A DNA stretch of 64,000 nucleotides. It comes from a virus. The first letter of the stretch is position 1, and every line of letters begins with the position of its first letter. Shown here one piece after another: positions 12,459 to 56,882 of the stretch. A model generated the notes under the pieces. The model did no database searches. It was not told the DNA's origin and worked only from the letters and a program-made list of their open reading frames with translations. The DNA lies in the IMG/VR virus record IMGVR_UViG_3300008262_000149, positions 6,309 to 70,308 of that record; one strand, 5' to 3'. The translations under genes and the position numbers were made by a program.

Positions 12459-12487
12459 TATATACATCAATTTGTTTTTAATGTACA
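12459..12487 (-). promoter_or_regulatory. early promoter (TGTACA-N17-TATATA) upstream of the tmRNA precursor
   Basis: Member of the repeated AACTGTGTACA-N17-TAnnnT family; predicted start about 12450. Confidence 0.45.
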
Positions 12488-38190: not shown

Positions 38191-38694
38191 TTATTTTCTC
38201 ATAAACCTACTGAAAGTCATGATGTTCTTTTTCTTTTTCTTTACACCCGGTTCACCCTGTGGACCGACACCAAGACCAGCAACATTACCAGCACCGGCAG
38301 CATTCACTGCAACTTCTTCACGCTGCATGATACGATCTATTGCGTTAAGTCTACCTTGTTTACGATTCTTAGCCTTATGACTTGGAATCTTATTTACAAC
38401 AAAACCGCCTTTCCAGTGATAATTAGACTTGGCAACATCGTCTGTTTTTTTCAAATAAGATTTTAGAGTATCAGTAGAGAGTTCATCAAGTTGTGCCTCT
38501 TCACGAACAGACTTGTATAGATGTGAATCTTTGTATTCTCTAGTCACGATGTTCTTTGGTGCTTTATAAGTTCCACCTGCAGAGGAAATGTGCACATGAC
38601 TATCAGTCACCTTCACAACCTTTCCTGTGTGCGGAGTATTGTTAAACTTTTTTGTCTTTAAATAGACTGTTTCACCTTTTTTGAAATCTGACAT
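38191..38694 (-). CDS. hypothetical protein
   Basis: 167 aa. Confidence 0.35.
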   Translation of the reverse strand: MSDFKKGETVYLKTKKFNNTPHTGKVVKVTDSHVHISSAGGTYKAPKNIVTREYKDSHLYKSVREEAQLDELSTDTLKSYLKKTDDVAKSNYHWKGGFVVNKIPSHKAKNRKQGRLNAIDRIMQREEVAVNAAGAGNVAGLGVGPQGEPGVKKKKKNIMTFSRFMRK

Positions 38695-39083
38695 TAGATC
38701 TTCCTTAGAATCTGTACTATATTCTGATCCATGTGAACATCAGAACTGATTATAGTTTTATTCTGAACACCAATGCCATGAATAATCTCTGGCATCTGGC
38801 CTAATAAAACAATGAACGGCTTCAACATGTGATGATAGCCGTCCAACTTAAAAAAAAGCATTCGAGTTGCTGCAGAACCAAAGACATTGTAAAGAATAAT
38901 CAAATGATTCAGCACCAGTCTTTCTTTCAGTTCACCGGCTTCTTCATATCGATTAAACAATCTTTTGATATACTTGAATCGAGCTAGATCCTCATAGAAC
39001 TCAAGTGTATCAAAACATTGCGGATTATCATAATGTTTCGCTGCATATAACAAAAAGTTTGTTTCATCAAGTTTATCAATCAT
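38694..39083 (-). CDS. hypothetical protein
   Basis: 129 aa. Confidence 0.35.
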   Translation of the reverse strand: MIDKLDETNFLLYAAKHYDNPQCFDTLEFYEDLARFKYIKRLFNRYEEAGELKERLVLNHLIILYNVFGSAATRMLFFKLDGYHHMLKPFIVLLGQMPEIIHGIGVQNKTIISSDVHMDQNIVQILRKI

Positions 39084-39334
39084 TATGCAATTCTTACTTT
39101 AACGTCCCCTGCAGCAGTGTAGTATAATTGTCCAAGCGCGACACCGCCGGTATTAGCAGCGGTGTCGTCAGCATAAGGACCTTGTACAATAGCTTTGCGT
39201 AATGTTGATAATGTAGTATGTTTTGTCGTGTTAGCGGAGACGTCCTCGACAATGAAGAGATCTCCGCTAGCAATCGACGTATTAGCCGTGCCAATTGGAT
39301 CTAATTCTGGAATCTTTTTAGCACGATCAGTCAT
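39083..39334 (-). CDS. hypothetical protein (structural-like composition)
   Basis: 83 aa. Confidence 0.3.
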   Translation of the reverse strand: MTDRAKKIPELDPIGTANTSIASGDLFIVEDVSANTTKHTTLSTLRKAIVQGPYADDTAANTGGVALGQLYYTAAGDVKVRIA

Positions 39335-39343
39335 ATGTTATCC

Positions 39344-39898
39344 TTAAACAATCGAACCCATAGCAACCAGTGTTTCATAAGAAACACGACCAACTCTACC
39401 ACCGACTGTTGCGGCAACATTAGCAGTTGAACCGCCTGTTGCACCACCAGTTGAGTTCGCAAAGGTGCCATACACAGTGGCATTAGTAAAACCTTTGCCG
39501 GTGTTGGTAATTGTAAGAGATGTAATACCGCCGGTTGTGTTTGTTGCAACGGTTGCAGTAGCATTTACAGTGTTTGTACCAGCAGCAGTAAATGTAAGAA
39601 TATCACCGTTTGCATAACCAGTACCACCAGCATTAATAGTTACTGCAGTAACTGGTCCTGTGCCAGTAGTTTTTAAGTTCCAACCGGCGTGTGCTACCTT
39701 TTTAAAATCCGAAGACGTATTAGCAGCTTCAACTACATCAACACCAAACTGCCCGGTAATTTCATTTGTTGCAAATGCACCGACAGTTGTATTACCATAT
39801 AGGTTTGTTTGGTTTGTAGTATTCGCAGTCTTATTTAGCTGAGAAACAGCCCATAGGACTGAATTTGCAGCGTCATCTGTATTGCCCCATTGAGCCAT
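39344..39898 (-). CDS. Thr/Asn/Gly-rich beta-rich protein (possible virion fibre/decoration protein)
   Basis: Composition only. Confidence 0.3.
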   Translation of the reverse strand: MAQWGNTDDAANSVLWAVSQLNKTANTTNQTNLYGNTTVGAFATNEITGQFGVDVVEAANTSSDFKKVAHAGWNLKTTGTGPVTAVTINAGGTGYANGDILTFTAAGTNTVNATATVATNTTGGITSLTITNTGKGFTNATVYGTFANSTGGATGGSTANVAATVGGRVGRVSYETLVAMGSIV

Positions 39899-40046
39899 TG
39901 TAGTTCCTCCTGAAAAACTTTAATTTATTTATTCTTCTTCTGTTGTTAGCAAATCGTCAAGGTATCTAGATTGCTTTTGATGAAAGAGATCCATATATCT
40001 TCTGTTTCTCTTTTCATCATAGGTTTCTTCTTGTTCTTCTTCCATC

Positions 40047-41498
40047 TCAATGCCTATATTTTACGATCTCACCGGTGTCCTTCGCAGCCTTAGGAACCGG
40101 AGCAGATACAGCCTTGACAAAGTCTGCGTGTGACTTATGAGCCTGCTTTTGGAAAGCAGCCTTATCTAGCGAGGTCTTACGAGCAGCCATGTGATCTTCG
40201 AAGCGGCTGATGTGGTTCGGATGGATGTCATGTTCCTTGCCGTCCATGAAACGAACCTTCTTGTTGATCGACTTGGCTTTACGAAGTTGCATGCCGAGAG
40301 CTACCATATCCTCGTCGGCTTTACCCTGACGTGCTTTCCATGCAGCCGAACCTTCCTTTGGTGGACGGCCACGACCTTCTTCAAGTTCTACTTCTTCGTG
40401 CATGTGTTCTTTGTTCTTGTGTCTATAAGCACGTACTGCATCATCGGCACCGCGTTCTGATGCTTTACCAGGACCTGATGTATAGCCCTTATGATAGGCT
40501 GCGGCTTCACCAGCAGCATGCTCAGGAGTTTTATAAGCAACACTGGCTAGATAAGACGTCTTGCCTTGTGGGTTTTTTAGGTGAGGACGATAGCCCTTGT
40601 CATGAAACTTAGACTTTTCAGAGGTTGCCATATAATCGCCAACCTTTAAATTGGCTTCAGCAATATCAATCTCTTCAAACATGTCATTGTTCAGAGAGTC
40701 GATGAACTCTTGTTCTTCCTTGGTCAGCTTATTTGCAGCTATTTCAATGCCCTTTTGGCGGCGGAGAGTTTTATTTAGATTCTTAGTTGGGTTCTCGCCC
40801 GTCTTGATCTTTAAACCAGCAGTAATGGCTTCTTGACCAACACTACCAGCGGCCTTCTTGATATAGCTTCCCAGTGTTGACTTCGAAAGTTCGTCGATCT
40901 GCTCTGCTTCTTCCTTGGCAACCACTTTGTTCAGTGGGTGCTTCATGGCTTTAACATCAGCTTTATCTTTTGAGCTATATGTGCCGACTATTTTACCAGC
41001 ACGCTCAACTCTCCACTTTTTACCAGATTCGCCTTGGCGTTGTGACATTAGCTCATCTTCAAGACCTGGATCAACTGCTTCAGAAGCCGCTTTAAAATCA
41101 GCGTCGGTAGGTGCACCCTTTGATCCAGGCTTGCGCATGCGCTCGCCAGATCCTGCCTTGATGCGCTTACGCTTGGCATGGATATTATCCCACAGTCCAC
41201 GCTTTTCTTCCTTCACTTCTTTCTTAGCTGGCTTCTTTTCTTTAGCCATCATATCACGAATTTTTTGAGCTGTCTTCTTATTAGCTTCAGTTGGCTCATC
41301 AGCAGTAGGCATATAGCCTTCTTTCTTTGTGCCATCTTCGTCTTCATCATCTTCTTCTTCTTTTTCACACTTTTCGCATTCACATTCTTTGTCGTGTTTT
41401 GCCTCGTCTAGAATACCACGAACGGTATTCAGAAGGTCGGCAGAAAACTGATCTTCGAGTTTCTTTGTAAACATTATGGGGTATCCTTTAGTCTGCAT
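40047..41498 (-). CDS. highly charged Lys/Glu/His-rich protein of unknown function
   Basis: 483 aa; CECEKCEK motif. Confidence 0.4.
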   Translation of the reverse strand: MQTKGYPIMFTKKLEDQFSADLLNTVRGILDEAKHDKECECEKCEKEEEDDEDEDGTKKEGYMPTADEPTEANKKTAQKIRDMMAKEKKPAKKEVKEEKRGLWDNIHAKRKRIKAGSGERMRKPGSKGAPTDADFKAASEAVDPGLEDELMSQRQGESGKKWRVERAGKIVGTYSSKDKADVKAMKHPLNKVVAKEEAEQIDELSKSTLGSYIKKAAGSVGQEAITAGLKIKTGENPTKNLNKTLRRQKGIEIAANKLTKEEQEFIDSLNNDMFEEIDIAEANLKVGDYMATSEKSKFHDKGYRPHLKNPQGKTSYLASVAYKTPEHAAGEAAAYHKGYTSGPGKASERGADDAVRAYRHKNKEHMHEEVELEEGRGRPPKEGSAAWKARQGKADEDMVALGMQLRKAKSINKKVRFMDGKEHDIHPNHISRFEDHMAARKTSLDKAAFQKQAHKSHADFVKAVSAPVPKAAKDTGEIVKYRH

Positions 41499-42078
41499 CT
41501 ATGATTTTAATTTTGCGTTCTGCCGCACGAGACCTTTTAATAAGGTATCTTTTCAAGTTATCTATATCTTTATCACCCTGAGGACCAGGAATAGGATCTG
41601 GTGTGTATCCCTTTGGTGGATTATGAAATCTTTTGTCATCAGCCGGATGGTAATCATGATCCGGATTAAGTTCTTTTTCATGCTCGCCTGACGCAGCATG
41701 TAATGCATTCATAGCAGCTTTTACAATAGCTTCGTGTTCTTTCTCAAGCTTCATTCCAGCAGCATGTCTCATTACGATCTCGCCGTGCATGGTAGCACGG
41801 GCAATATGAGCCGCTGTGGCTTTGCCGGTGTGGTGCACATCCTTGACAATATCAAATAGTTTGTCTAGATTCTCAGCTGCGGTTTGAGCATCAGAAGCAT
41901 TTGTATCCTTTGGAAGATCAGCATAAAGCTTTTGAGCTTCTGGAGATACTTCAAACGCTTTTGTAGTATAAGACCCGACAGCGATCTGATCGTTCTGATC
42001 AGACTCGATAGCACCCATAGCAATATGCTTTGATTCAAAGATATCGCGAATCTTAGACTCTAATGATCTATATTTCAT
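41488..42078 (-). CDS. hypothetical His-rich protein
   Basis: 196 aa. Confidence 0.35.
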   Translation of the reverse strand: MKYRSLESKIRDIFESKHIAMGAIESDQNDQIAVGSYTTKAFEVSPEAQKLYADLPKDTNASDAQTAAENLDKLFDIVKDVHHTGKATAAHIARATMHGEIVMRHAAGMKLEKEHEAIVKAAMNALHAASGEHEKELNPDHDYHPADDKRFHNPPKGYTPDPIPGPQGDKDIDNLKRYLIKRSRAAERKIKIIDAD

Positions 42079-42386
42079 CTACATCTCCATCTACGTAGAG
42101 ACATTGCTTTCCGCGTAGGACGTCCCTTTTCATCCTTCATTGGTCCTGGCATACCGCTCATACGAGCACAGAAAGACTTGCGTCTCTTGGCATCCTTTGA
42201 ACCAGGTTTTACTTTACCTGTCACAGCGGTTTGCAACTTTGAACCAGGATTCTTTGCACGGAAGGCCTTGACGCCCTTCTCAGTCATTCCAGCACCCTTT
42301 TCGGTTGCAATGAAATGCCCCTTAGAATCTTCACCTCGAGCTTCTGAAACAAATTGCTTAAAGCGTATCATCTGGCTTCCCATCAT
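42075..42386 (-). CDS. basic hypothetical protein
   Basis: 103 aa. Confidence 0.3.
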   Translation of the reverse strand: MMGSQMIRFKQFVSEARGEDSKGHFIATEKGAGMTEKGVKAFRAKNPGSKLQTAVTGKVKPGSKDAKRRKSFCARMSGMPGPMKDEKGRPTRKAMSLRRWRCR

Positions 42387-43875
42387 TTACATTTCCGGAT
42401 CCGATGATCTTTTTGTTTCTTTTTTGCTTGCGCACAACGGTCTTACCATCGGCGGTACGAACGATTACACCTTTAACGTCAGCAGTGCGAACTTCTTCCA
42501 TTGCATCAACAACATCTGGATGAAGTTCGAAAGCAGGCTTCATCTTGATTCCGCATGCTTCGGCCGAGAGAGTCACGCCGATACCAGCAGTCCAAGCCAT
42601 GTTGAATGTTTCATTGAGATCGGCTTTCTCTTGGCCAGGTGTTTCTTTCTTGTACTTCTTGACAAGAGAATCAGTTCCAATCTCTCTTTCAGATGGAGAG
42701 TCTTCGTTTATCTTAGCATGCTTCTCAGCAGACTTTTTGAAGTCCATTCCAAAATACTTCTTCTTGCCCCACTTATTCGAAGCAACCCATGCCGTCTGCT
42801 TCTTTGGATCACTTGATCCATAGTGCGGCTTTACATATGGCTTCATCTCGCCTTCATCAATAATTTTCTTTTGAAGTTCTTGATGGCGCTTTTTTACATT
42901 CGATTCCGCAGGTTTACGATCTACAATCTCTTTGCTTTTAGTTTGTTCAAGAAGTTGCTTGAACGCGTTGTCAAGTTCTTCGTTGACAATTCTCTCTTCA
43001 CGAAGATCTGCATCAAGAGTCCATGCTCTACCTTTAGCGATATAGCTATTGACTCGATTGAATGCAAACTGATCTCGTGTTTGACGTGCGTCTTCTTGAT
43101 ACAACGAAGCGCCGCGCTCGTACACCTCCTTGAGAGTCGAGAACGGGATGCCAGTTTTTTCAGCTTTTTTGATAAGTGTTTCTGTGATCTGATCGGTGCC
43201 AATTGTGGCATTCAGCATTCTACGTAGAGTGATACCTAGCGGATTACTTTCTTTTTCAAATCGAGTAATCGCATTTTCAATGATATCGACAAGCTCGAGT
43301 GTTGACTTGTCATTTAGATCAGAGAACAGACCAGAAAATTCTTCAGCAGCAATCGTGGTATGGAGGCTCTTCATTGGCTCTCCACTGTGATAAGACTTGA
43401 GTCTTTCGAACTCTGCTTTTCTTAGTTTTGGTAGAAGTCTTGCTGCGAGTCTCTTGATGAGTTTGGTCTTTTTGGCAACAGCAGTGTCTACCTGAATCTT
43501 TTCAGATGTTGTCAGTTCGGCGTAAGGAACATCCTTGCGGGCCGAGAATCTAGATTTCAAGAGTGCACGTGCCTTGGCTTCTGCACGTCTTTGTAGCTTC
43601 TGAGGACCGGCAAGACGAGCTTGCGAGATCTCTTTTGCTCTCTGAATCTTTGGTTGAATGCGCTTCAGCTGGCGACCTCTTTGCTGACGCTGTGCAAGCG
43701 TCAAGGCTTTACGCTCCTGAAGGGATGCGGCTAGGACGGCAAAGTCCTCGTTTGTACGGCGCTTGTCGTCTAGCTGAGGATTAACGTCGACGCCATCTAG
43801 TGGTTTACCAGTTGCAGACTTGCCCGTAGGCTTCTTAGTATTCTTTTCTGGTACCGGTTTCTTCTTATCTTCCAT
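42358..43875 (-). CDS. large basic Lys/Arg-rich protein (internal-protein-like composition)
   Basis: AAGGGA ribosome-binding site before MEDKKKP. Confidence 0.4.
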   Translation of the reverse strand: MEDKKKPVPEKNTKKPTGKSATGKPLDGVDVNPQLDDKRRTNEDFAVLAASLQERKALTLAQRQQRGRQLKRIQPKIQRAKEISQARLAGPQKLQRRAEAKARALLKSRFSARKDVPYAELTTSEKIQVDTAVAKKTKLIKRLAARLLPKLRKAEFERLKSYHSGEPMKSLHTTIAAEEFSGLFSDLNDKSTLELVDIIENAITRFEKESNPLGITLRRMLNATIGTDQITETLIKKAEKTGIPFSTLKEVYERGASLYQEDARQTRDQFAFNRVNSYIAKGRAWTLDADLREERIVNEELDNAFKQLLEQTKSKEIVDRKPAESNVKKRHQELQKKIIDEGEMKPYVKPHYGSSDPKKQTAWVASNKWGKKKYFGMDFKKSAEKHAKINEDSPSEREIGTDSLVKKYKKETPGQEKADLNETFNMAWTAGIGVTLSAEACGIKMKPAFELHPDVVDAMEEVRTADVKGVIVRTADGKTVVRKQKRNKKIIGSGNVNDGKPDDTL

Positions 43876-43945
43876 CAGAGTTTCCCTTGGGCTTATCTGT
43901 AAACAAACGGGATTGCCGTAGCCTAACCGCATTGTTATTTATGCG

Positions 43946-45265
43946 TTATGTGATTTCTTGGAAAGTAATAGCACCAAGAGCATCATCACCGTTCGCTGCA
44001 CCAGTTGCAACAAGAGAAAATACAACACCTTTATTATTAGCAGCAAAAGAGTTGCGCTCTAGCTGATATTGGAATAAAGAAGAGCCTGCAAGATTAATTG
44101 CAGTACCGCCGGCCCCAGCAGAAATATTAATATAACCAACCTGTGCATCTCTACCGCCGGTAATGGCAGTGGCTGTGATATCATACTCAACTGATGATTC
44201 GGCGGTATTTACATCAACCCAACTGGCCCCGGTAAGTGTACCGCCAACAACAAGTTTGTATCGATAGCGTGTATTGTTTGAAACACCAAAGAATTCAATG
44301 TCTGTTGGAATTACGATAGCATCTGAATACGCGTCTTTTAATCGAATTGAGATGATTGGAACAAATGTACCTGCTGTTGGTATATCTTTTGGTGTTGTGA
44401 TAGGAATACCAATTGATCGCGATCTACCCTTTATTTCATATCCGCCTTCTGAGATCACAGTAGCACAAACAATCTTGAGTGTTGAACTGCTTGCTGTAGT
44501 ACCAAGATTTTCAATCTCAGCACGGACTGGCAAACATGCTGTTGCCATATATGTCGAATCAATAATATTGGCGTGATGGAATGAATGACAGTGAACAAAC
44601 TTGCCATTAATAACGAAACCGCAGCGAACCGTACCAAGTCCTAACCATTCAATATCGATAAACTGAATTTGAGCTTTTGTTAGATCCAGAGTAAGTTTTG
44701 ACGGACCATTACCATCTAGTTTATCGTATAACCAATTTTGTTGATATACACGGGTTTCAGATACACCGGTACCAGGCGATGTAGATCTTTCTACCCAACA
44801 AATACCAGCATCAGTTTGTTCTAAAAAGATTCCGTTGGTAGTGCTGAAATAACCATATCTCTGACGCAGGTTTGTTTTGTGCGGAGACATTACATATGTT
44901 TGGAGAATCTGCAGAGATTTGCCTGGCTGATATGCAAACACACGGGCTGATTCTCTATAAAGGAATGAACCAGATGCCGTGTCAAGTGTGCATTCAATCA
45001 ATCCGGCGTTTGCATTGTGTGTTGATACGGCCCCGGTTGCAGAGTTTGATTGATTGATTCTACCATTATCTCTGTACCTGTGCGATGAATCAAACAAAGT
45101 CAGTGGTTGTGCTGATCTGGCTCTACCGAAAGCATCGACTGCCATGCCAGTCGGATTCGATCCGTCAATAGGATTACCATAGATATCAGCAGTCATATTC
45201 AGTTCATAGAGATGAACGTTATGAGGCTGTTTAAATTCGTAGCTGTCAGTGCGCCATTGTGCCAT
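43946..45265 (-). CDS. hypothetical 439-aa protein
   Basis: No similarity to gp23 recognised. Confidence 0.4.
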   Translation of the reverse strand: MAQWRTDSYEFKQPHNVHLYELNMTADIYGNPIDGSNPTGMAVDAFGRARSAQPLTLFDSSHRYRDNGRINQSNSATGAVSTHNANAGLIECTLDTASGSFLYRESARVFAYQPGKSLQILQTYVMSPHKTNLRQRYGYFSTTNGIFLEQTDAGICWVERSTSPGTGVSETRVYQQNWLYDKLDGNGPSKLTLDLTKAQIQFIDIEWLGLGTVRCGFVINGKFVHCHSFHHANIIDSTYMATACLPVRAEIENLGTTASSSTLKIVCATVISEGGYEIKGRSRSIGIPITTPKDIPTAGTFVPIISIRLKDAYSDAIVIPTDIEFFGVSNNTRYRYKLVVGGTLTGASWVDVNTAESSVEYDITATAITGGRDAQVGYINISAGAGGTAINLAGSSLFQYQLERNSFAANNKGVVFSLVATGAANGDDALGAITFQEIT

Positions 45266-45268
45266 TAG

Positions 45269-45880
45269 TTAATCCAGTTCTTGAATCTCGCAATAAAGGA
45301 CTCGTAAGGGCATGGGCATGCCCTTACGAACGTCATGATAGAGTTCATCCTTGTGCGCTTTACTCATCCCGGCCGGAGCCATCTTATGAAACGACTCCTT
45401 GTCTCCGGCTGAAGCGTGCTTGCGCATTGCCGTACCAGAAGCAGCAGCAATTCCTTCACCTGTGTCTGAACGCTCGCCGCCGACAGACTTGACCTTGATG
45501 CTCTTGAAGTTATAGTGTCCATGCCTCCCTTCAGTTCCATTATACTTGTGGAGCAAGTTATGAAACTCATGGACACGATCTGAGCCGACATGCATAGTTA
45601 CGTGTGTGTAACCAGCCTTATGCAGCTTAGACATCTGATGAAGCAACGTAGGATGATCTTTACCCATAGCCTCTACCTTCGCGCCCTTCACGGCACGAGA
45701 CAGATGCTTGACCTTCTGTTCTGGAGTCAGAGGATTCTTCTTGGCATCATGAGAACCGGTTGTCAAGATCTTATGATCTGCACCTTCCTTCTTAGCGGCA
45801 TCCATCACATGCTTTACGACCATTTCGTGGCCAGCATGCACAGGATTGAATCTTCCTTGAGTGATATGGATTGCCTTCAC
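45269..45880 (-). CDS. cytidylyltransferase-family nucleotidyltransferase (HxGH motif)
   Basis: GRFNPVHAGH fits the GxFxxxHxGH motif of NMNAT / heptose-1-P adenylyltransferase / CoaD; His-rich. Confidence 0.5.
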   Translation of the reverse strand: MKAIHITQGRFNPVHAGHEMVVKHVMDAAKKEGADHKILTTGSHDAKKNPLTPEQKVKHLSRAVKGAKVEAMGKDHPTLLHQMSKLHKAGYTHVTMHVGSDRVHEFHNLLHKYNGTEGRHGHYNFKSIKVKSVGGERSDTGEGIAAASGTAMRKHASAGDKESFHKMAPAGMSKAHKDELYHDVRKGMPMPLRVLYCEIQELD

Positions 45881-47046
45881 AGCGATTTGTCCTTGTTGAA
45901 GTTAGCAGCCGAGAACTCAGCACGATCAACAATCTTAGTAGGACGATTATGTCTTACCACCACAAATCCTTCAGGCTTAGATTTCTTTCCACTGATACTA
46001 TGATCAAACTCAGCACGACTCGAGAGTGTATTAGATAACACATCCTTTGCCTTCTGAAGATGGTTGTGCATCTGCAAAATGCGTTCGAAGTGACCACGAT
46101 TGCGTTGGACATGAGCAATATCTTGCTCCATTGCCGCAGTCTTTGATGCCTTCGAGGCAGCAGTCTTTACAGAGTCGATCTTCTTCTGATGCGACTTAGC
46201 AAGATGCGCCATAAACTCATTTACATTCGGCTTAGTACCGGTACGAACCGTATGGTTGATATATGTCTTGAGAGGAATACGGTGGCTCTCGATGGCCGCA
46301 TGAGTTTCAGGACCGGTCTTTGCATGCAACTTAGCAGCAGCTGCCATGTGCTTGACAAACTTAGCCTGGTGTTGTGGCTTATAATCAATGCCAGACATGT
46401 CATGTTCTGTAGAGATAAGATGCACATCCTTGTGCAGTCCAAACTCATCAAGGTTTGGTGCATACTCGGCCTTCATGTCTTCGAGGTTCTTACCGTTATA
46501 CTTGGTATGAACAGCAACACCGATCTTTGAACGAAGTGCTGCTTTGCCATGATGCGAGTTCTTATCAGCAGAGTACGTAATGGTATTTGGTGTAAAGTGA
46601 ATCTTATTGCCCGATTCGTGCACATCATTTTGTGTGTGCATGATATCACCTTGGAACACACCCTTACGGGGAGTTACCTTCGGCAGATGATCCAAGGCAG
46701 CTTTCAGTTTCTCTACAAGACCAGGAGCATGACCATGATTGCGTTCAATGTCCTCATGCGTGTAGTTGATCTTTGGATTCTTGTTGAACGCAGACTTGGA
46801 TGCAACAAAGAACTTACCAGTTTCAGGATGACGACCAAACACAACAGAAGGCGAACCGTCATACTTCATGGTTACCTTCGTGGCATTCTCTTTACCAGTT
46901 AGTTTATCATGCACATCCTTGAGATTATGATAAGCGTGTGAGAACCCTTCGGCGCCAGCATTAATCACATGATCTTCTGCATGCTCAAGATGCTTGAGCT
47001 TTTCTTCACTTACTTCTTCGGTCAAGAAATTTTTAAATGCTGTCAT
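45877..47046 (-). CDS. ATP-dependent ligase-like nucleotidyltransferase (KxDG)
   Basis: Motif I TMKYDGSPSVVFG, motif IV/V PEGFVVVRHNRPTKIV; unusually long (about 300 aa) His-rich spacing between the motifs. Confidence 0.45.
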   Translation of the reverse strand: MTAFKNFLTEEVSEEKLKHLEHAEDHVINAGAEGFSHAYHNLKDVHDKLTGKENATKVTMKYDGSPSVVFGRHPETGKFFVASKSAFNKNPKINYTHEDIERNHGHAPGLVEKLKAALDHLPKVTPRKGVFQGDIMHTQNDVHESGNKIHFTPNTITYSADKNSHHGKAALRSKIGVAVHTKYNGKNLEDMKAEYAPNLDEFGLHKDVHLISTEHDMSGIDYKPQHQAKFVKHMAAAAKLHAKTGPETHAAIESHRIPLKTYINHTVRTGTKPNVNEFMAHLAKSHQKKIDSVKTAASKASKTAAMEQDIAHVQRNRGHFERILQMHNHLQKAKDVLSNTLSSRAEFDHSISGKKSKPEGFVVVRHNRPTKIVDRAEFSAANFNKDKSL

Positions 47047-47648
47047 TTTACCGTCTTTATCGATCCATCAGGGTTTACAAAATATGCTTCAAACTTAATG
47101 TTTGGATATTCTTTTTGCAGCGAAAGAAATGCATGAAGATTGCTAGGAGCATCATCAAACAATCTCAGCTTAACGTAGTTCTTTGTATTTATATACTTGC
47201 GGAAGATGATCTTCTTAGCTTCTGCCGAAGAGTCGATCTTCAAGTTACCAGCGCGCTCAACGTGAATCTGATCAATCGGAAGACCATGATCACGAAACGT
47301 CTGAAGGAAGAGATCCTTGTTATCAAAGTCAGCCCGTGCAGTGCAGATGATTACCCGGCTGTGAGGATTCTTCTTCGAGTTGGCAAAGATCGCTTTCGCC
47401 TTTGCAACCATACGAGAGATTGGAGTCGAGGTCTTGCGAAATACCTCTGCGCTCGCAAACTCTCCGAAGTCGTAGGTCTCGCCTTCCTTACGCTTGTAGG
47501 TGTTAAACTCCTGGTTATCCAACATTCGAACAACCTTGCCATCCTTTACGACAGCAACCTTTGCCTTCGTATGGAAGAGTGTCTCATCGATATCGAATAT
47601 CGTGAGCGTACCAGAACCAACAAACTCTCTAAACCTTTTCTTGATCAT
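47043..47648 (-). CDS. HAD-family phosphatase (polynucleotide 3'-phosphatase-like)
   Basis: DxDxT motif IFDIDETLFH; likely leaderless mRNA from the adjacent promoter. Confidence 0.55.
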   Translation of the reverse strand: MIKKRFREFVGSGTLTIFDIDETLFHTKAKVAVVKDGKVVRMLDNQEFNTYKRKEGETYDFGEFASAEVFRKTSTPISRMVAKAKAIFANSKKNPHSRVIICTARADFDNKDLFLQTFRDHGLPIDQIHVERAGNLKIDSSAEAKKIIFRKYINTKNYVKLRLFDDAPSNLHAFLSLQKEYPNIKFEAYFVNPDGSIKTVK

Positions 47649-47653
47649 GGTTT

Positions 47654-47682
47654 ACCCTACAACGTTTTTGAAAAAATGTACA
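47654..47682 (-). promoter_or_regulatory. early promoter TGTACA-N17-TAGGGT, 5 nt before the ATG (leaderless mRNA predicted)
   Basis: repeated promoter family. Confidence 0.45.
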
Positions 47683-48432
47683 CTATAAAAAACATGCCAG
47701 GTTCAATTTTTTTTCGATAATATTGACTGTTTTCCCATCAACCGGAGCGATATTAAATGGAGATTTAGAATTTGTTGGAATACTAAACTGCATCTCAAAA
47801 GTGAATTGATAATTGCCACCACCTTTATATTGGACGCGCGCTCTGTATGTAGCATTTGCAGCGGTTCCAAACCGTGGAATGCCTTTTAACTTTAAGGGGT
47901 TCTTAGATCCCATTAAATAGAACCCGTGGGTTCCAACATTTACATAATATGTTTTTTTCTTTATATAATACTCTTCAATTTTTGATGCTGGAATAGAGCC
48001 TTTAATATCTTTAAAGAGAACTTTATCACGCTCATACATTTCTCTATTTGACATATTACCAAAAAAAGCTTTCCATTCATCATCTTTGTCGCGTTTTGCC
48101 GGTTTGTCTTTCCAGTTTTCTTTAATAATATCAAATATGCCGACTTCTTCTGCTAATTCTTTAATAAAGAGTTTTTCATCTTCAGTAGATTTGATGTCTC
48201 CAAATTTCCACGGATTAATTTTATCTTTTGAATCGTATTTAATTACTAGAGACCCAGCAGAAGCTGCAGATATCTTAAGTTCACAACCAGCTTTTTGATT
48301 GCCTTTCATAATCATCAAATCTGGTTGGTCATGACCTGCTCCAGCAGGCCTAAAGTCTTTAGGAACAATCCCATATTTTTTTAATAAATTTGATGCATTG
48401 ATTTCGTATTGAAATCCTTGTTGGGCTGCCAT
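47683..48432 (-). CDS. PD-(D/E)xK-like nuclease (putative)
   Basis: DQPDLMIMKGNQKAGCELK fits a PD...ExK pattern. Confidence 0.35.
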   Translation of the reverse strand: MAAQQGFQYEINASNLLKKYGIVPKDFRPAGAGHDQPDLMIMKGNQKAGCELKISAASAGSLVIKYDSKDKINPWKFGDIKSTEDEKLFIKELAEEVGIFDIIKENWKDKPAKRDKDDEWKAFFGNMSNREMYERDKVLFKDIKGSIPASKIEEYYIKKKTYYVNVGTHGFYLMGSKNPLKLKGIPRFGTAANATYRARVQYKGGGNYQFTFEMQFSIPTNSKSPFNIAPVDGKTVNIIEKKLNLACFL

Positions 48433-48517
48433 AAAAAACTCCTTTGGTCTATTTATGAGACAAAAGAAAACCGGCCCGAGTATTGCTACTGGGCCGGCCG
48501 TGTTATTCTTATTTATA

Positions 48518-49072
48518 CTAAGCAGCTATAAACCACTCTGGAATCGGACGTTTTGTCCAGACCATCCTGAAGCGATCTTGCTTGGTCCGATAAAACTTGC
48601 GGTATGAACCTACGATGTCACGATAGTCCATACACTCTGGGTTCGACTTCATAGCCAGCGGTTGTGGAGTCTTGTAACCGATCGGGATGTTTAGCGGAGG
48701 ACTCTTGAGAACCTCACGAAGCAACTTATCGGTTCCATGGACCTTGCCATAACGGTACGTATACTCGTCACACAGAGCTACAAAGTGGACATAGTGCCAG
48801 TTGTAGTTGTTGTTGCTCTCAGCGGTCCAGACCGTGCAAGGATGATGCATGTGCACAGCGCGGTACAAAACATCCTCACGGCTATCTGGCAGGGTCCATG
48901 CCTTGGACATGGTCTTGCCAGACTTTGATGGCACACGAGTTTCTACGCCGTCAAGCATACGATGAACCGTCGAGAGCATCTGAGCCGACTCGACGATCAT
49001 CTTCACCACATGCTTATCACACTGCAGCTGAGCAGCTTTGATTGGACATGTATCGAGAATAAACAGATTCAT
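48518..49072 (-). CDS. hypothetical protein
   Basis: 184 aa; AAGGTG ribosome-binding site. Confidence 0.4.
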   Translation of the reverse strand: MNLFILDTCPIKAAQLQCDKHVVKMIVESAQMLSTVHRMLDGVETRVPSKSGKTMSKAWTLPDSREDVLYRAVHMHHPCTVWTAESNNNYNWHYVHFVALCDEYTYRYGKVHGTDKLLREVLKSPPLNIPIGYKTPQPLAMKSNPECMDYRDIVGSYRKFYRTKQDRFRMVWTKRPIPEWFIAA

Positions 49073-49859: not shown

Positions 49860-50405
49860 TTAAAAGGGTGTAAACTTCTTAATTAGATTGCGAACGACAA
49901 CATCAAAACCGTCTTTGAGGTCTTCAATTGCAATATCTTTACCATCAACATTCAGCTCGTAACCGGCTTCATTACGACTACGGTATCCAGTGAGAGTGTT
50001 ACCATTATAGATGAAAGAAAACCAATCATCATTCGATTGAATGTCAGCGTTACCAGAGACCCAAGCGTTACCAGAGACCCAAGCGTTACCAGAGACCCAA
50101 GCGTTACCAGAGACCAAAGCGTCACCAGAGACCTCAGCGTCACCATAGACCCAAGCGTTACCAGAGACCCTAGCGTTACCAGAGACCAAAGCGTCACCAT
50201 AGACCCAAGCGTTACCAGAGACCCTAGCGTTACCAGAGACCAAAGCGTCACCAGAGACCCAAGCGTTACCAGAGACCCTAGCGTTACCAGAGACCAAAGC
50301 GTCACCAGAGACCCTAGCGTTACCAGAGACCAAAGCGTTACCAGAGACCTCAGCGTTACCAGAGACCTCAGCGTTATCCAAAATATTTTTCATATCAAAC
50401 TCCAT
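49860..50405 (-). CDS. hexapeptide-repeat (left-handed beta-helix-like) protein with C-terminal globular domain
   Basis: About 20 tandem copies of the 6-residue unit xVSGNA. Confidence 0.55.
   Translation of the reverse strand: MEFDMKNILDNAEVSGNAEVSGNALVSGNARVSGDALVSGNARVSGNAWVSGDALVSGNARVSGNAWVYGDALVSGNARVSGNAWVYGDAEVSGDALVSGNAWVSGNAWVSGNAWVSGNADIQSNDDWFSFIYNGNTLTGYRSRNEAGYELNVDGKDIAIEDLKDGFDVVVRNLIKKFTPF
50037..50390. repeat. in-frame tandem DNA repeat (18-nt unit gcgttaccagagacccaa and variants)
   Basis: Directly visible in the sequence. Confidence 0.8.
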
Positions 50406-52268: not shown

Positions 52269-53087
52269 TTACTTACCGACGTTCACGATACCCTTGAAGT
52301 CATAAGGAACAACAACGGTCTGAACCTTGCCGGCCTTCACGCCTTCGGCGATATCCTGCAGGGCCATAGCAGCCATGTACTCGGTAGCACCGCGGTTAGC
52401 ATTCAGAGCAGCAATACGCTGTGCTTCCAGCTTAGCAGTCTGGACTTCAACTTCCTTACGCTTCTGTTCGTTCTGAGCCTGAACCAGCGCATTAGCCGAT
52501 GCTACGATGTTACCAGCCGGTTTGATCTGACGGACAAGAACCTGCGACAGCGTAATGGATCCATCAAGCTTTTCAGCAGCCAGCTGGCTAACGATTTCCT
52601 GACGGATCAGCTGTTCCATCTCTGCACGATTGTCAGCCATCTTCAGCGACTCGTACTTACGAGCAACCTTATAAGCAGCATTACGACCAAGCTGACGAAT
52701 GTAGTTGTACATCAGCAGAGTGTCGCCTTCCTCGGTGTCAGCGTGGAAGCCACGGTTCTTCTCGATGAAGAGCTCGGCAACCGAGGTTGGATTGATCGAG
52801 TAGATCACAGCCATGTCGAAGTCGGCAACGGTCGAGTTATCCGAAGCCAGAGGAGTCAAATCAGTAATATCAACCTGAACATCCTTGGTTGGGAAAGTCA
52901 TAACATCACCGAAGATCGTCTGGTTCACAGAACCAGGCATCAGTTCCGTGGTTTCGATGGTCTTGTCGAATGCACGACGAACACCGACCTCACCGGTCTC
53001 AACTCGAGTACAAGCAGCAGTCGTAGCCAGCAGACCAGCGAGCACAGCAACCTTAGCATAACGATTCATTATATTCATTCCTTTCAA
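52269..53087 (-). CDS. SPFH/band-7 (stomatin/prohibitin-like) lipoprotein
   Basis: Signal peptide with LLATTAAC, then a band-7 domain and a coiled-coil. Confidence 0.5.
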   Translation of the reverse strand: MKGMNIMNRYAKVAVLAGLLATTAACTRVETGEVGVRRAFDKTIETTELMPGSVNQTIFGDVMTFPTKDVQVDITDLTPLASDNSTVADFDMAVIYSINPTSVAELFIEKNRGFHADTEEGDTLLMYNYIRQLGRNAAYKVARKYESLKMADNRAEMEQLIRQEIVSQLAAEKLDGSITLSQVLVRQIKPAGNIVASANALVQAQNEQKRKEVEVQTAKLEAQRIAALNANRGATEYMAAMALQDIAEGVKAGKVQTVVVPYDFKGIVNVGK

Positions 53088-53263
53088 TTAAAGTAAGATA
53101 ACAATAGATGCAACAATCAAGATTGCCAAGGTGGCACAAGCTAAACTATACCCCAGCACCTTGGCAAGCTGGAGCTTTTCTCGACCACTTGCAGCAATGA
53201 ATCCCTGGATACCCAGAAACACCATTGCAAAGATGGCCAGAAATGCAATAATCATTTTACTCA

Positions 53264-53890
53264 TTAGTTAGGTCCACTTCCATTTCCCCAGGCATCAACT
53301 GGACCTTCATATCCAGTCTCTGCCCAACGCTTAGCAATACGAGCATCTACTTCTTCAAACGACAGAGGTTCGTAGTTGGTATGCTCGACCGAGACACACA
53401 GGTAACGAGGATCAGGCATCTCTGTATCCTCGGCATATCCATGCTTCCACCAGCCCATCACCTCGTTCGCATGCAGGTGACCATGAACGTTCACCTTGAA
53501 ACGATGTGTGATACAATCTGGGTGCAGAGGAATATGACTCAGGATGAACTGGTCGGTGAACACACGAACACCATACAGCGATTCGAAACCAACCTCGTAG
53601 TAGTCCTTATCACGAAAGATATCGTGGTTGCCACGAACCAGACGCTTCTTGCCGTTCAGTCGCTTCACCAGATGAAGGTACTTACGGTTGATAACAACAT
53701 CACCTAGGTGGTAAACAACATCGTTCGGCTTGACCTTCGCGTTCCAGCGCTCGATCATAGTCTCATCCATCTCTTCGTTAGAGGTGAATGGACGCAGAGG
53801 ACTACCATCTGGCAGCTTGAACTTTTCCCACGAATTGGTATGTCCGAAGTGTGTATCGGAGATAACAAAACGATTCACAGAATTAGTCAT
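53264..53890 (-). CDS. calcineurin-like metallophosphoesterase
   Basis: ISDTHFGH, GDVV, GNHD motifs. Confidence 0.6.
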   Translation of the reverse strand: MTNSVNRFVISDTHFGHTNSWEKFKLPDGSPLRPFTSNEEMDETMIERWNAKVKPNDVVYHLGDVVINRKYLHLVKRLNGKKRLVRGNHDIFRDKDYYEVGFESLYGVRVFTDQFILSHIPLHPDCITHRFKVNVHGHLHANEVMGWWKHGYAEDTEMPDPRYLCVSVEHTNYEPLSFEEVDARIAKRWAETGYEGPVDAWGNGSGPN

Positions 53891-54119
53891 CGTAACATTC
53901 TTCCAGTTTATCATTTGCAAACATAACCAGCACATGCGCCAGATCCAGCGCCTGCTCCTTGGTCAGCTGGGTATACCAGTAGCCAAAGTCGTAGCGATCT
54001 TTTTCGGATTCTGGTCTTGGAAAGGTGAGTTGGACGCAGCGGCCGTCGGGCCCGCCGAAGAAGCCGACCATCGACATCTTGCCAGTGCGGCATTGAACAG
54101 ATTTAAATTGAGTGCTCAT
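53883..54119 (-). CDS. hypothetical protein
   Basis: 78 aa. Confidence 0.3.
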   Translation of the reverse strand: MSTQFKSVQCRTGKMSMVGFFGGPDGRCVQLTFPRPESEKDRYDFGYWYTQLTKEQALDLAHVLVMFANDKLEECYDD

Positions 54120-54145
54120 ATGTTTTTCCCATTCCGTATAATCTA

Positions 54146-54174
54146 TATCTACACCGGAATGGGAAAAATGTACA
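54146..54174 (-). promoter_or_regulatory. early promoter TGTACA-N17-TAGATA
   Basis: repeated promoter family; flanked by a direct repeat GGAATGGGAAAAA. Confidence 0.35.
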
Positions 54175-54407
54175 CAAAAAAATTACTGTTGAAGCAACAT
54201 TTCGATCAATGGCTTCAGTTCATCAGCGTATTGTTGGCCAACGCTTGTGCTCAGGATTAGAACAGCAGCGCCGATTAGAGCAACCTTGATTGCTATAGAC
54301 TTGTATTTTGACATTTCTTCTTACCTGCCTTGGATTTGGGTTTACAAACGTCAGGGTGAAACATAGTGTCTCTCAGGTGTAATATTTATAAAACCATAAA
54401 TAGGAGC

Positions 54408-55439
54408 ATGACGACATGCATACTTATTCCTGCCCACAACGAGGAAGTTGTGTTGCAGAGCACGCTCAATTCTCTCTATGAAGTGGGATTCGATCCCACC
54501 ATTATTTATTGTGTCGACGACTTCTCTACAGACAAAACCTACGATATTTGTATTGAAAATAAAATAAATGTCTGTAGGACTCCAACCGGACTAGGAAAGG
54601 CCGGCGCACAGCAGTACGCCATTCAGCATTTCGAGCTGTGTGATAAATACAAATATGTAATCATGATAGATGCTGACACAAAAATAGATCAAAACTTTAA
54701 AGATGTTTTAACGTTGAATCTGCTACACTACAATGACGTAGATCTTTTTATTGGACAGGTTACGAGTTCTAAAGCAAATCATATCTACTCTGCGTATCGA
54801 ACTGTAGAATACACGTTCTCGCACGAGGTGGTTAAAAAGGGACAGGCAGCTTTCGGAGTTGTTTATGTTGCGCCTGGGTGCGTTTCAATATATTCAACCG
54901 ACATATTAAGACATTTGGAATTTGATTCTTCGGTGCTTACAGAAGATATGGATCTCACGTTACAGGTTCATAAGTTAGGCGGAAAGATCAAATACCTACA
55001 TGATGTGAAGGTGATTACGCAGGATCCGAGTACGTTCAAAGACTACCATAAACAGATGATGAGATGGTACGGTGGATTCTGGCAGGTCATTATGAAATAC
55101 GCCAACAGAAATAACAGGTTTAAGGGCGTTGATTTTTATCTGCTTTATTTGATATTAGATTCTTTGGTACTGAATAGACTCATCATGCTTTCTGCGAGCT
55201 TCATAGTACTTGGTCTAAAATCTATCTTATTGGTCTTGTTTATTGATATGTGCATATTTGCTCTCGCTGCAGTATATGCTTCATACAAAAATGATCGCAA
55301 TGATTTAATATATAAAGTTCCAGTTCTATATCTTTTGTCGTTTTTTAATACGTATGCTTACATAAAAAGTTTCTTTGACGTTATAGTGCTTCGAAAGAAA
55401 AAGAATAACTGGAACAAAGTTAAAAGATACGGAGAATGA
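54408..55439 (+). CDS. processive family-2 glycosyltransferase (PgaC/NodC/HAS-like) with C-terminal transmembrane helices
   Basis: CILIPAHNEE, DAD (IMIDADT) and Q-x-x-RW (KQMMRW) motifs; hydrophobic C-terminus. Confidence 0.6.
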   Translation: MTTCILIPAHNEEVVLQSTLNSLYEVGFDPTIIYCVDDFSTDKTYDICIENKINVCRTPTGLGKAGAQQYAIQHFELCDKYKYVIMIDADTKIDQNFKDVLTLNLLHYNDVDLFIGQVTSSKANHIYSAYRTVEYTFSHEVVKKGQAAFGVVYVAPGCVSIYSTDILRHLEFDSSVLTEDMDLTLQVHKLGGKIKYLHDVKVITQDPSTFKDYHKQMMRWYGGFWQVIMKYANRNNRFKGVDFYLLYLILDSLVLNRLIMLSASFIVLGLKSILLVLFIDMCIFALAAVYASYKNDRNDLIYKVPVLYLLSFFNTYAYIKSFFDVIVLRKKKNNWNKVKRYGE

Positions 55440-55440
55440 A

Positions 55441-55869
55441 ATGAAAAAGTATATACTGGGAAGCTTACTTGCTCTCGTCGTTCCTGCCACTGCACATGCT
55501 GAAGACAAAAACTTTCCAGGAAGCGCATGGGTAAACGTAACAGGTCCACATGTTTCTGGAGAAGAAAAAGGAAACTGGGTTCTATCCGGAAGAATAGAAC
55601 AAGACGCCGTTCTTACCGAGGTTGCAGACTGGAAACTCGCCGCAACAACCGGTATTGGATTTAGCACCGATACAAAAGGTTTTGAATGGAACAACAAAAT
55701 CGTTCCATCGGTAGGAGTGAAAGCAACTCGAGAAGCTTTTGGCGGTGTGATGAACGTGACCGTTCAGTATGCCTACGAGAGACGCTTTGGCAAACTATAC
55801 AAAACCGACGATCGCTCAGATGGCGGCGTGCAGGTTGTGGTTAACTACTGGACAGGTTGGGGAAGATGA
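55441..55869 (+). CDS. secreted beta-rich protein (signal peptide)
   Basis: Signal peptide MKKYILGSLLALVVPATAHA. Confidence 0.4.
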   Translation: MKKYILGSLLALVVPATAHAEDKNFPGSAWVNVTGPHVSGEEKGNWVLSGRIEQDAVLTEVADWKLAATTGIGFSTDTKGFEWNNKIVPSVGVKATREAFGGVMNVTVQYAYERRFGKLYKTDDRSDGGVQVVVNYWTGWGR

Positions 55870-56742: not shown

Positions 56743-56882
56743 GAGACGACTTATTGTGCCATTGCTTCATGAAAGCACGATATTTTGTCATGTTTGGTTT
56801 TTGACTACGATTCCCACAAATCCATCTCCAACCAAACAAAGCGGTTTGTACACAAACATAATAGTAATGCCTGCGGAACCAT

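Follow-up and report, generated by a model that had tools for sequence, protein, structure and literature searches.

A ligase-fold DUF6267 protein and its HIGH-motif nucleotidyltransferase partner in the late region of a T4-like myovirus: a candidate end-healing and sealing module

The DNA analyzed here is a stretch of 64,000 nucleotides (the window) of the IMG/VR virus record IMGVR_UViG_3300008262_000149 (positions 6,309 to 70,308), and its subject is a block of minus-strand genes built around a 389-amino-acid (aa) protein of the family DUF6267 and a 203-aa nucleotidyltransferase with a HIGH-type motif. The DUF6267 protein is well supported, on the basis of a structural model, as a highly divergent covalent nucleotidyltransferase with a polynucleotide-ligase fold. 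Together with the 203-aa enzyme, which resembles nicotinamide mononucleotide (NMN) adenylyltransferase (NMNAT) and PPAT, it forms the core of a phage-restricted pair, translationally coupled in the window and fused in other phages. We propose, with about even confidence, that the pair and its neighbors constitute a late-made, partly virion-carried module for the healing and sealing of nucleic-acid ends. The identification itself (folds, motifs, pairing, and late and virion context) is well supported; the substrate (RNA or DNA), the adenylyl donor, the packaging in this phage and the biological role are what we infer. A preliminary description, made from the letters of the same DNA, had read the block as a single-promoter operon for a candidate uncharacterized nucleic-acid repair, modification or injected-protein system.

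The 389-aa protein matches Pfam DUF6267 (4.6e-101) over its full length and belongs to phrog_455. Pfam returns this family alone and NCBIfam nothing, no ligase was found among PDB sequences using phmmer and hmmsearch, and hhalign comparisons with T4 Rnl2, T4 gp30 and the Rnl1 of the window gave probabilities below 1%. Judged by its sequence, the protein does not belong to any described ligase family. The AlphaFold2 model (50 homologues; pLDDT 88.5, pTM 0.86) displays a beta-rich domain, formed by residues 57-215 and 348-373, that is interrupted by a five-helix insert (residues 224-341). Structure comparison of the model gave scores of 8.3 for Naegleria RNA ligase, 7.6 for the trypanosome RNA-editing ligase and 7.3 for T4 Rnl2, and of 6-6.9 for several DNA ligases, tRNA ligases and T4 Rnl1. 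The top three Foldseek matches are ATP-dependent DNA ligases (probability 0.94, 0.93 and 0.54), followed by NAD-dependent ligases and Rnl2 with weak E-values. The predicted fold is therefore that of an adenylyltransferase domain. The model terminates directly after the motif-V-like strand, and its sole extra domain is the helical insert.

An alignment of 77 distinct IMG/VR homologues (33-100% identity) revealed a set of invariant residues: K61-x-D63-G64, Q132-x-D134, Y158, T181, Y183, E359-G360 and K371; R375 is conserved in 75 of them. The KxDG of motif I closes the strand 57-61 of the model, and K61 is the predicted nucleotidyl-accepting residue, by presumed equivalence to the catalytic lysine of ligases. 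Candidates for motifs III, IIIa, IV and V, assigned from their pattern, are Q132-G-D134, H180-T-x-Y183, E359-G360-(F/Y)-V and K371-x-V-D-R375; all show little or no variation and follow one another on beta-strands as expected for ligases, those for motifs III and IIIa preceding the helical insert. An N-terminal helix, H19-x-E21-H22-x-E24-D25 (HxEHxED), is present in all homologues that cover the region. The KYDG and EGFVVV...K motifs of the preliminary description are indeed present, and its ligase-like assignment holds for the fold and for the catalytic pattern, the motif-I/IV/V-like residues being invariant across the family. The 300-aa His-rich insert that it reported corresponds in fact to the helical domain of about 120 aa (residues ~224-341); the His content of the two enzymes is 8.7% and 10.3%.

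The 203-aa protein matches Pfam CTP_transf_like (6.7e-5) and PHROGs named cytidyltransferase (1e-46). The GxFxxxHxGH nucleotidyltransferase proposed earlier was recovered as GRFNPVHAGH together with SGTAMR, and the closest structures are NMNATs, although PPAT fits the fold nearly as well. The elements GR(F/M)NPx(T/H)xGH and SxTxxR are invariant across the family; motifs of the HIGH type, (H/T)xGH, and of the ISSTxxR type occur in a Rossmann-like fold. The best NCBIfam matches are archaeal NMNAT models, and homologues are named NMNAT or nicotinate mononucleotide adenylyltransferase (NaMNAT) by JGI and in one cyanophage record. The protein is the 'cytitidyltransferase' of T4-like cyanophages, catalogued as T4-GC 71/190.

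The association of the two proteins was examined in 80 IMG/VR DUF6267 loci (L-numbers below denote loci), which were fetched and annotated locally. Among the 50 loci whose downstream sequence is long enough, 47 have a nucleotidyltransferase gene on the same strand within 2.5 kb downstream of DUF6267; its start is at most 5 nt from the DUF6267 stop in about 29 loci, and the two are directly fused in eight. Records of cultured phages agree in number, with DUF6267 in 371 Synechococcus, 61 'Cyanophage' and 24 Prochlorococcus records and the nucleotidyltransferase in 375, 61 and 24, respectively; Stenotrophomonas phage DLP6 carries both. In S-PM2, p138 and p139 ('Cytitidyltransferase'; L001 5986-7765) jointly span the two proteins; the overlapping tblastn segments are not in one frame, which suggests one fusion gene interrupted by a frameshift or by a sequencing error in the record. 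The pair is catalogued, being the DUF6267/'cytitidyltransferase' pair of T4-like cyanophages, and is not unique to this phage. Homologues of DUF6267 were found in merely 16 of 185,579 species genomes, nearly all on phage-sized contigs of metagenome-assembled genomes with the same architecture, and the module is therefore essentially phage-restricted. Apart from the kinase and phosphatase genes treated below, the open reading frames (ORFs) between or upstream of the pair in the 80 loci, once clustered and scanned, comprise the gp41 helicase, a matter of synteny, and one RimK-like ATP-grasp protein; the remaining clusters have no recognizable domains. The ATP-grasp protein (2.7e-31) is encoded at L069 4533-5558, directly after DUF6267, where it replaces the nucleotidyltransferase.

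Directly upstream of DUF6267, the window encodes a 201-aa protein of the HAD type in which all four HAD motifs are found. The DxDxT motif noted previously is present as DIDET, and close relatives all retain D19, D21, T23, T103-A-R105 and D165-D166; across 66 multidomain relatives that are more distant, the corresponding D, D, T, T-A-R and DD positions do not vary, nor does one Lys. The assignment as a HAD phosphatase is sustained by phrog_415, the group that includes the phosphatase domain of T4 Pnkp, which matches residues 15-176 of the protein (1.5e-9) and residues 154-298 of T4 PseT (3e-24). Direct comparison with T4 PseT is not significant (BLASTP E 2; hhalign probability 6.6%), Pfam gives a weak match to HAD_SAK_1 (0.045) and NCBIfam nothing, and the profile retrieved only noise from PDB sequences. 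A profile search of 1.84 billion representative proteins yielded 1074 relatives, many of which (including P0362-P0510) sit in multidomain phage proteins of up to 1439 aa, beside ParB_N, ART-PolyVal, NUDIX, GH19/LysM, GNAT, HNH, PLD, HD, Amidoligase_2 and dCMP deaminase domains. No homologue was detected by tblastn among 50,697 records of cultured phages. The HAD gene is linked to DUF6267 in 13 of the 80 loci and in the very distant L106 and L107 (29% DUF6267 identity), and is absent from L009, from HTVC008M and from the module loci of S-PM2 and S-SZBM1. Its place varies: it may precede DUF6267, separate the two genes of the pair or follow the gene of the virion protein, and this recurrence in varied positions argues that the linkage is selected.

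Ten of the 80 loci, and HTVC008M, contain a P-loop kinase in the module instead of the HAD protein; kinase and HAD never co-occur among the 80 loci. The best matches of this kinase are weak, namely PSTK (2.5e-10, far under the cut-off) and the kinase domain of T4 Pnk (E 3e-4). In L088, L095, L083 and L068, a bona fide adenylate kinase separates DUF6267 from the nucleotidyltransferase (NCBIfam E 1e-50 and 7e-42; L088 3534-4795, L095 7322-8583, L083 7967-9181), and in some loci it adjoins or is fused with the Pnk/PSTK-like kinase. The ORF of L088 and L095 had been considered as a T4 PseT-like phosphatase; this was rejected, as it matches the kinase half of PseT and is an adenylate kinase. In L046, the nucleotidyltransferase is fused to a kinase in an arrangement reminiscent of NadR.

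The separate Pnk and Rnl1 genes reported in the preliminary description were confirmed in the window. They belong to an RNA-repair-like cluster (52269-58091) that also encodes a calcineurin-like phosphoesterase and an SPFH/Band-7 protein, and the presence of this cluster supports the view, already advanced there, that the DUF6267 set is a second, different system. It may be the metallophosphoesterase, and not the HAD protein, that works with Rnl1 as its end-healing partner.

Ten co-directional minus-strand ORFs extend from 47648 to 39083, as previously described, and independent gene calls on three metagenomic contigs that carry the same protein agree with them (201, 389, 203, 439, 524/505, 103, 196, 483/475, 184 and 83 aa, in block order). 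The ATGA overlap at 47043-47046, between the HAD and 389-aa genes, is real; the one reported at 45877-45880, between the 389-aa and 203-aa genes, is GTGA with a GTG start. The co-directional block extends past both of the earlier limits and, beyond 39083, reaches the primase gene, so that the limits of the operon drawn before are arbitrary. The leaderless promoter placed at 47654-47682 did not hold: a sigma-70 scan shows no site there, and sigma-70-like sites are not enriched in the region (27 versus 23.7 +/- 5.2 in shuffled sequence). A single-promoter operon of ten genes was consequently rejected, as internal late-promoter motifs are also present.

These motifs are of the T4 type. In the window, the late core TATAAATA is present in 12 copies where 1.96 are expected and ATAAATA in 25 where 10.4 are expected, numbers that shuffled sequences never reached. 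Because late-promoter motifs with a strong Shine-Dalgarno sequence precede three gene groups (48450-48457, 43936-43943 and 39926-39933), the region constitutes at least three consecutive late units, each opening with NATAAATA. The first probably begins with the gene of a 249-aa protein, outside the coordinates given before, and the sequence makes it probable that CATAAATA at 48450-48457 starts a unit comprising the 249-aa, HAD, DUF6267, nucleotidyltransferase and 439-aa genes. The order 5' of the 249-aa gene is the stop of the preceding gene, TATAAATA, a hairpin with a U-run, CATAAATA, AAGGAG and ATG; the hairpin is exceptionally stable (-22 kcal/mol, z -3.97, equaled by 0 of 200 shuffles). 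A counterpart of this promoter motif lies at the same relative position in L002 and L004, and that of the second unit in the equivalent place in L002. Moreover, in S-PM2, S-SZBM1 and the metagenomic relative L009, the gene that opens the DUF6267 block is preceded by NATAAATA at a distance of 27-32 nt. In the window, the 475-aa and 184-aa genes are separated by 148 nt (39899-40046, minus strand), with a 38-aa ORF that is also called in related contigs and a hairpin of moderate stability (z -2.0) that precedes the late-promoter motif.

The surroundings of the pair are those of virion proteins. The 439-aa protein encoded after the nucleotidyltransferase shares 47% identity with cyanophage proteins annotated as virion structural, and its S-SZBM1 homologue (424 aa) agrees, both in name and in length, with a protein that was identified in virions (PMC9146016); homologues follow DUF6267 or the nucleotidyltransferase in 10 IMG/VR loci. 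Clear structural homologues of these proteins had been named earlier as part of what would refute the proposed system, and in part they exist, since the 439-aa protein has them among cyanophage virion proteins. Homologues of the nucleotidyltransferase itself have been found in purified virions as S-SZBM1_140 (PMC9146016), S-CREM2 ORF154 (PMC10665884) and S-SCSM1 ORF91 (PMC9602691); S-CBWM1 is also cited in this respect, and such detections are called frequent (PMC9602691). Proteins encoded just downstream were likewise detected, S-SZBM1_139 and _136 (PMC9146016) and S-CREM2 ORF155, 156 and 160 (PMC10665884). The earlier idea of delivery with the virion thus gains support of an indirect kind, through homologues of the nucleotidyltransferase and its neighbors in cyanophage virion proteomes (PMC9146016, PMC10665884, PMC9602691).

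We consider it about evenly balanced whether these elements act together in end healing and sealing. In such a module, the Pnkp-type HAD phosphatase would have been recruited directly upstream of the pair in this lineage, and a Pnk/PSTK-like kinase, sometimes with an adenylate kinase, would take the equivalent place in others. The phosphatase, or elsewhere the kinase, would heal broken polynucleotide ends, and DUF6267 would seal 3'-OH/5'-P breaks through a lysyl-AMP intermediate. The HIGH-motif partner would make or regenerate the adenylyl donor, an NAD-like ADP-X, or handle the adenylate otherwise. The genes would be expressed late, beside those of virion proteins, and at least the nucleotidyltransferase would be carried in virions, so that the activity would be at hand as soon as the next infection begins. 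The downstream charged modules, often fused to the nucleotidyltransferase, would probably be virion-associated accessory or targeting proteins.

Several observations weigh against this proposal. A HAD or kinase partner accompanies the pair in only 14 of 42 well-flanked loci (about one third), and the adenylate kinase neighbors and NMNAT-like partner are compatible equally well with nucleotide metabolism. The phage already possesses Rnl1, the Pnk kinase and the metallophosphoesterase 6-9 kb away. The motif assignment in DUF6267 relies on order, pattern and invariance, and no OB or other known nucleic-acid-binding domain was found in the protein. The nucleotidyltransferase scores far under the curated NMNAT cut-offs (25 bits versus 127), and SSZBM1_141, the DUF6267 orthologue, is not in the virion proteome list of S-SZBM1 (PMC9146016).

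A more specific form of the sealing hypothesis, in our opinion distinctly improbable, is a ligase that recharges itself: DUF6267 would take AMP from NAD+ or another ADP-X and release NMN, the NMNAT-like partner would rebuild the cofactor from ATP, adenylate kinases would clear AMP, and the HxEHxED helix would play the role of domain Ia of LigA. Were part of the module carried in the virion, phage or host nucleic acids could be sealed or repaired within minutes of the onset of infection, even in cells whose NAD+ has been depleted by defense systems. Such an enzyme would also represent the long-sought ligase activity of marine T4-like phages without gp30.

Nucleotide or NAD+ salvage, possibly as a counter-defense, would account for part of the same data, and we regard it as unlikely. 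The 203-aa protein would then be a true NMN/NaMN adenylyltransferase, the kinases and the HAD protein would act on mononucleotides or nucleosides, and DUF6267 would adenylylate a small molecule or a protein. The structural, NCBIfam and database-name matches of the 203-aa protein to NMNATs, the adenylate kinases inserted in four loci, the NadR-like fusion of L046 and the NUDIX, dCMP deaminase and HD domains that accompany HAD relatives all agree with it. The low NMNAT score and the nearly equal match of the PPAT fold do not, and salvage leaves unexplained the ligase fold of the obligate partner, in which every ligase-type catalytic residue is invariant. Furthermore, the HAD protein groups with the Pnkp phosphatase PHROG, the closest, if weak, relatives of the common kinase (PSTK and T4 Pnk) act on nucleic acids, and no Nampt (NadV) was met among the minority of window ORFs that were scanned against family libraries. 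If DUF6267 is instead a ligase, it could be the 'missing' replicative DNA ligase of cyanomyoviruses and pelagimyophages, replacing T4 gp30 in the sealing of Okazaki fragments, which appears quite improbable to us. Cyanomyoviruses lack gp30 homologues, undetected distant ones having been raised as a possibility (PMC2984593). Using tblastn, T4 gp30 matches 2645 phage records with cyanophages outside the top ten organisms (smallest entry 63), and about 460 cyanophage records carry DUF6267. The complete genome of HTVC008M contains no other ligase detectable by tblastn with gp30, Rnl1 or Rnl2 queries, which also counts in favor of the end-sealing proposal; the DUF6267 gene is placed, within the replication-gene region of the window, S-PM2, S-SZBM1 and HTVC008M, between those of gp41 helicase and gp61 primase, and the best Foldseek matches are ATP-dependent DNA ligases. 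However, late-promoter motifs precede the block in four lineages and the gene is co-transcribed with virion protein genes, DUF6267 has no OB domain, the obligate nucleotidyltransferase is left unexplained, and host LigA is able to serve T4-like replication (PMC2984593). A simple replacement of gp30 is also weakened because DLP6 has DUF6267 and the nucleotidyltransferase and also a gp30 ligase (PMC5349666).

A mainly structural or assembly role is, in our judgment, highly improbable. According to this explanation, DUF6267 would act like T4 gp63 (Rnl1) in tail-fiber attachment and the nucleotidyltransferase would be a virion component, their chemistry being secondary or lost. The location of the genes amid virion protein genes, adjoining tail-fiber genes in DLP6, the repeated detection of the nucleotidyltransferase in virions and the precedent of gp63 (phrog_562, 'RNA ligase and tail fiber protein attachment catalyst') would fit. 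Nevertheless, none of the catalytic-type residues varies in either enzyme, even among deeply diverged homologues, an argument that catalysis has been retained; the S-SZBM1 virion proteome does not include DUF6267, and the phage has its own gp63 homologue.

A comparison with characterized ligases shows that in Rnl2/REL1, Rnl5 (Naegleria NgrRnl) and ATP-dependent DNA ligases, as in DUF6267, the KxDG ends a beta-strand and is followed, in the same order, by the QGD-, EG- and K-strands. By contrast, DUF6267 has no detectable sequence or profile similarity to them; it contains the helical domain of about 120 aa before the motif-IV-like strand and the conserved N-terminal HxEHxED helix, lacks an OB/C-terminal nucleic-acid-binding domain, has an obligate HIGH-motif partner, linked or fused, and is essentially confined to phages. 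With respect to archaeal NMNAT (M. jannaschii), NadM, NadR and PPAT, the 203-aa family falls far under the NMNAT cut-offs, is PPAT-like in that the first His of HxGH is Thr in most members, and differs in its frequent extension by DUF5824-type or charged modules and in its occurrence in virions. The combination of a ligase-fold enzyme with a HAD 3'-phosphatase-type domain (here) or a Pnk-type kinase (elsewhere) recalls T4 Pnkp (PseT) with Rnl1/Rnl2. In this module, however, the healing enzymes are encoded by separate genes and occur in about one third of loci, the constant partner is the HIGH-motif nucleotidyltransferase, pairwise comparison of the HAD protein with PseT shows nothing significant, the signals are late and the context is that of virion genes, and a canonical Rnl1 with a Pnk kinase is found elsewhere in the window. 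Polyvalent proteins, described as entering the cell together with the injected DNA and as encoded in the vicinity of late and virion genes (PMC5512222), are similar in gene location, in bringing together disparate enzymes and shuffled small modules, and in that HAD relatives occur in large multidomain proteins. They differ in that the activities of the window lie on separate genes; elsewhere, fusions are DUF6267-nucleotidyltransferase, nucleotidyltransferase-DUF5824, nucleotidyltransferase-kinase, and HAD with ParB_N, NUDIX or ART domains. A word search of the 2017 survey of polyvalent proteins (PMC5512222) found no HAD, HIGH-motif nucleotidyltransferase or ligase, DUF6267 not being among the words.

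The genes themselves are known, catalogued as DUF6267 and 'cytitidyltransferase', and the pair has been annotated as a 'hypothetical protein' with a 'cytitidyltransferase', or treated as an auxiliary metabolic gene. A literature search for DUF6267, DUF5824, DUF6321, DUF7207, their Pfam accessions and 'cytitidyltransferase' gave no matches, and a survey of pelagimyophages makes no mention of ligases or of the DUF6267 module. Neither the ligase-fold assignment nor the recurrent recruitment of HAD or kinase and the link to virion-borne proteins appears in the literature found. The gene pair is carried by all T4-like cyanophages and pelagimyophages, which rank with the most abundant marine viruses. 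DUF6267 is a candidate for a new ligase family, characterized by a helical insert, the lack of an OB domain and an obligate NMNAT-like partner, and recognition of its fold makes end-joining in marine myoviruses without gp30 directly testable. The pairing also offers a rationale for the puzzling, repeated detection of 'NMNAT' in cyanophage virions. Should the link to an enzyme that makes dinucleotides prove real, it would constitute a new way to power ligation, and possibly a counter-measure to RNA-cleaving or NAD-depleting defenses.

Table 1. Features of the DUF6267 region and of the Rnl1/Pnk-kinase cluster, in window coordinates.
Feature	Position	Strand	Remarks
DUF7207 gene	38694-39083		third late unit runs on through it into further genes
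184-aa Thr/Asn/Gly-rich protein and 83-aa protein	39083..39898	-	weak head-closure and baseplate PHROG matches
Late-promoter-like AATAAATA	39926..39933	-	start of third unit; then AGGAGG and ATG at 39898
475-aa charged modular protein (483 aa from upstream ATG)	40047..41474	-	'GLWDNIHAKRKR...' module
196-aa His-rich (6.1%) protein	41488..42078	-	no family match
103-aa basic DUF6321 protein	42075..42386	-	pI 11.3; PF19846 4.2e-21
505-aa Lys/Arg/Glu-rich modular protein	42358..43875 (ORF to 43932 = 524 aa)	-	phrog_23027
Late-promoter-like CATAAATA	43936..43943	-	start of second unit; abuts stop of 439-aa gene, precedes 505-aa gene
439-aa virion structural protein	43946..45265	-	phrog_1645 'virion structural protein' 2.6e-116
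203-aa HIGH-motif nucleotidyltransferase, NMNAT/PPAT-like	45269..45880	-	GTG start overlaps DUF6267 stop (GTGA)
389-aa DUF6267 protein	45877..47046	-	predicted cryptic covalent (lysyl-NMP) nucleotidyltransferase/ligase fold
201-aa Pnkp-phosphatase-type HAD protein	47043..47648	-	ATGA-coupled to DUF6267
249-aa protein	47683..48432	-	first gene of late unit; phrog_26930 (function not annotated)
Late-promoter-like CATAAATA	48450..48457	-	then AAGGAG and ATG at 48432
Intrinsic terminator (GC-rich hairpin and U-run)	48462..48500	-	ends transcript of upstream DenV-like gene
TATAAATA motif	48510-48517		just 5' of terminator
SPFH/Band-7 protein	52269-53078	-	part of Rnl1/Pnk-kinase cluster (52269-58091)
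Calcineurin-like phosphoesterase	53264-53935	-	Metallophos_2 8e-6, just under cut-off
Kinase-only Pnk	56257-56730	-	28% identity to T4 PseT residues 1-145, E 3e-10
Rnl1	56883-58091	-	PF09511 and T4_Rnl1_C

The 249-aa protein that opens the first late unit contains a D38...E51-x-K53 pattern, of which the ExK is invariant and D38 is kept in five of six homologues. It has no Pfam, NCBIfam or PDB match and no nuclease-family profile, and a PD-(D/E)xK nuclease is a possible assignment by pattern. Its homologues are encoded directly upstream of DUF6267 in L029, L036, L045, L052, L103 and L104.

The proteins encoded downstream of the 439-aa gene had been described as large, charged and His-rich. The 505-aa, 103-aa and 475-aa proteins are highly charged (34-38% of residues), and His amounts to just 1.2% and 3.6% in the large ones; the 196-aa protein is the His-rich one. 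The charged proteins are composed of shuffled modules, namely DUF5824-like, DUF6321 and phrog_16028 'GLWDNIHAKRKR' ('GLWDNIH'). The 505-aa protein has 35% charged residues and a weak DUF5824-like module (PF19141 1.2e-4, under the cut-off), and modules like its own are fused to the nucleotidyltransferase in HTVC008M (AGE60464), DLP6 (AAY80_068), L029, L032, L035, L036 and L041. Several PHROGs contain larger proteins that end in the DUF6321 module, and phrog_16028 matches residues 98-139 of the 475-aa protein (2.5e-21). In L009, the 475-aa and 505-aa modules are joined, with DUF5824, in one protein of more than 897 aa. Homologues of the 196-aa protein hold the equivalent position in L019, L020, L032, L035 and L045. 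The 184-aa protein is probably a virion surface protein, and homologues of the 184-aa/83-aa unit adjoin the module in L018, L026, L029, L052 and DLP6. The DUF7207 gene that follows is syntenic in S-PM2, S-SZBM1 and HTVC008M. In DLP6 (L096), the gene at 5995-7296, after the nucleotidyltransferase fusion, is annotated as 'exodeoxyribonuclease VII large subunit', a doubtful annotation; it sits among a tail-fiber gene and homologues of the 184-aa protein.

The gene set of the window includes gp43 polymerase, UvsX, gp41 helicase, gp61 primase, NrdA/NrdB and a baseplate protein, and identifies a T4-like myovirus. Near-identical DNA is absent from 50,697 phage records, and the phage is therefore known solely from metagenomes; the exact 389-aa protein is present on 22 contigs, and relatives with 66-94% identity lie on metagenomic contigs of up to 166 kb. 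The window is syntenic with Pelagibacter phage HTVC008M and encodes a permuted two-piece transfer-messenger RNA (tmRNA) of alphaproteobacterial type (12157-12485, minus strand; RF04321 95 bits, RF01849 60 bits). Both Rfam matches exceed the gathering score; ARAGORN missed this tmRNA and found no tRNA genes. The tmRNA type hints at an alphaproteobacterial (SAR11-like) host and, together with the synteny, suggests a pelagimyophage-like virus.

A DenV-like pyrimidine-dimer DNA glycosylase (48518-49072, minus strand; Pfam Pyr_excise 6e-5, phrog_624) is encoded directly upstream of the terminator and late-promoter pair, and HTVC008M has three genes annotated as endonuclease V. Further upstream, a 181-aa protein (49860-50405, minus strand) consists nearly entirely of 'SGNAxVSGDALV' beta-solenoid repeats (YdcK beta-solenoid repeat 4e-24, Bactofilin 1.7e-6).

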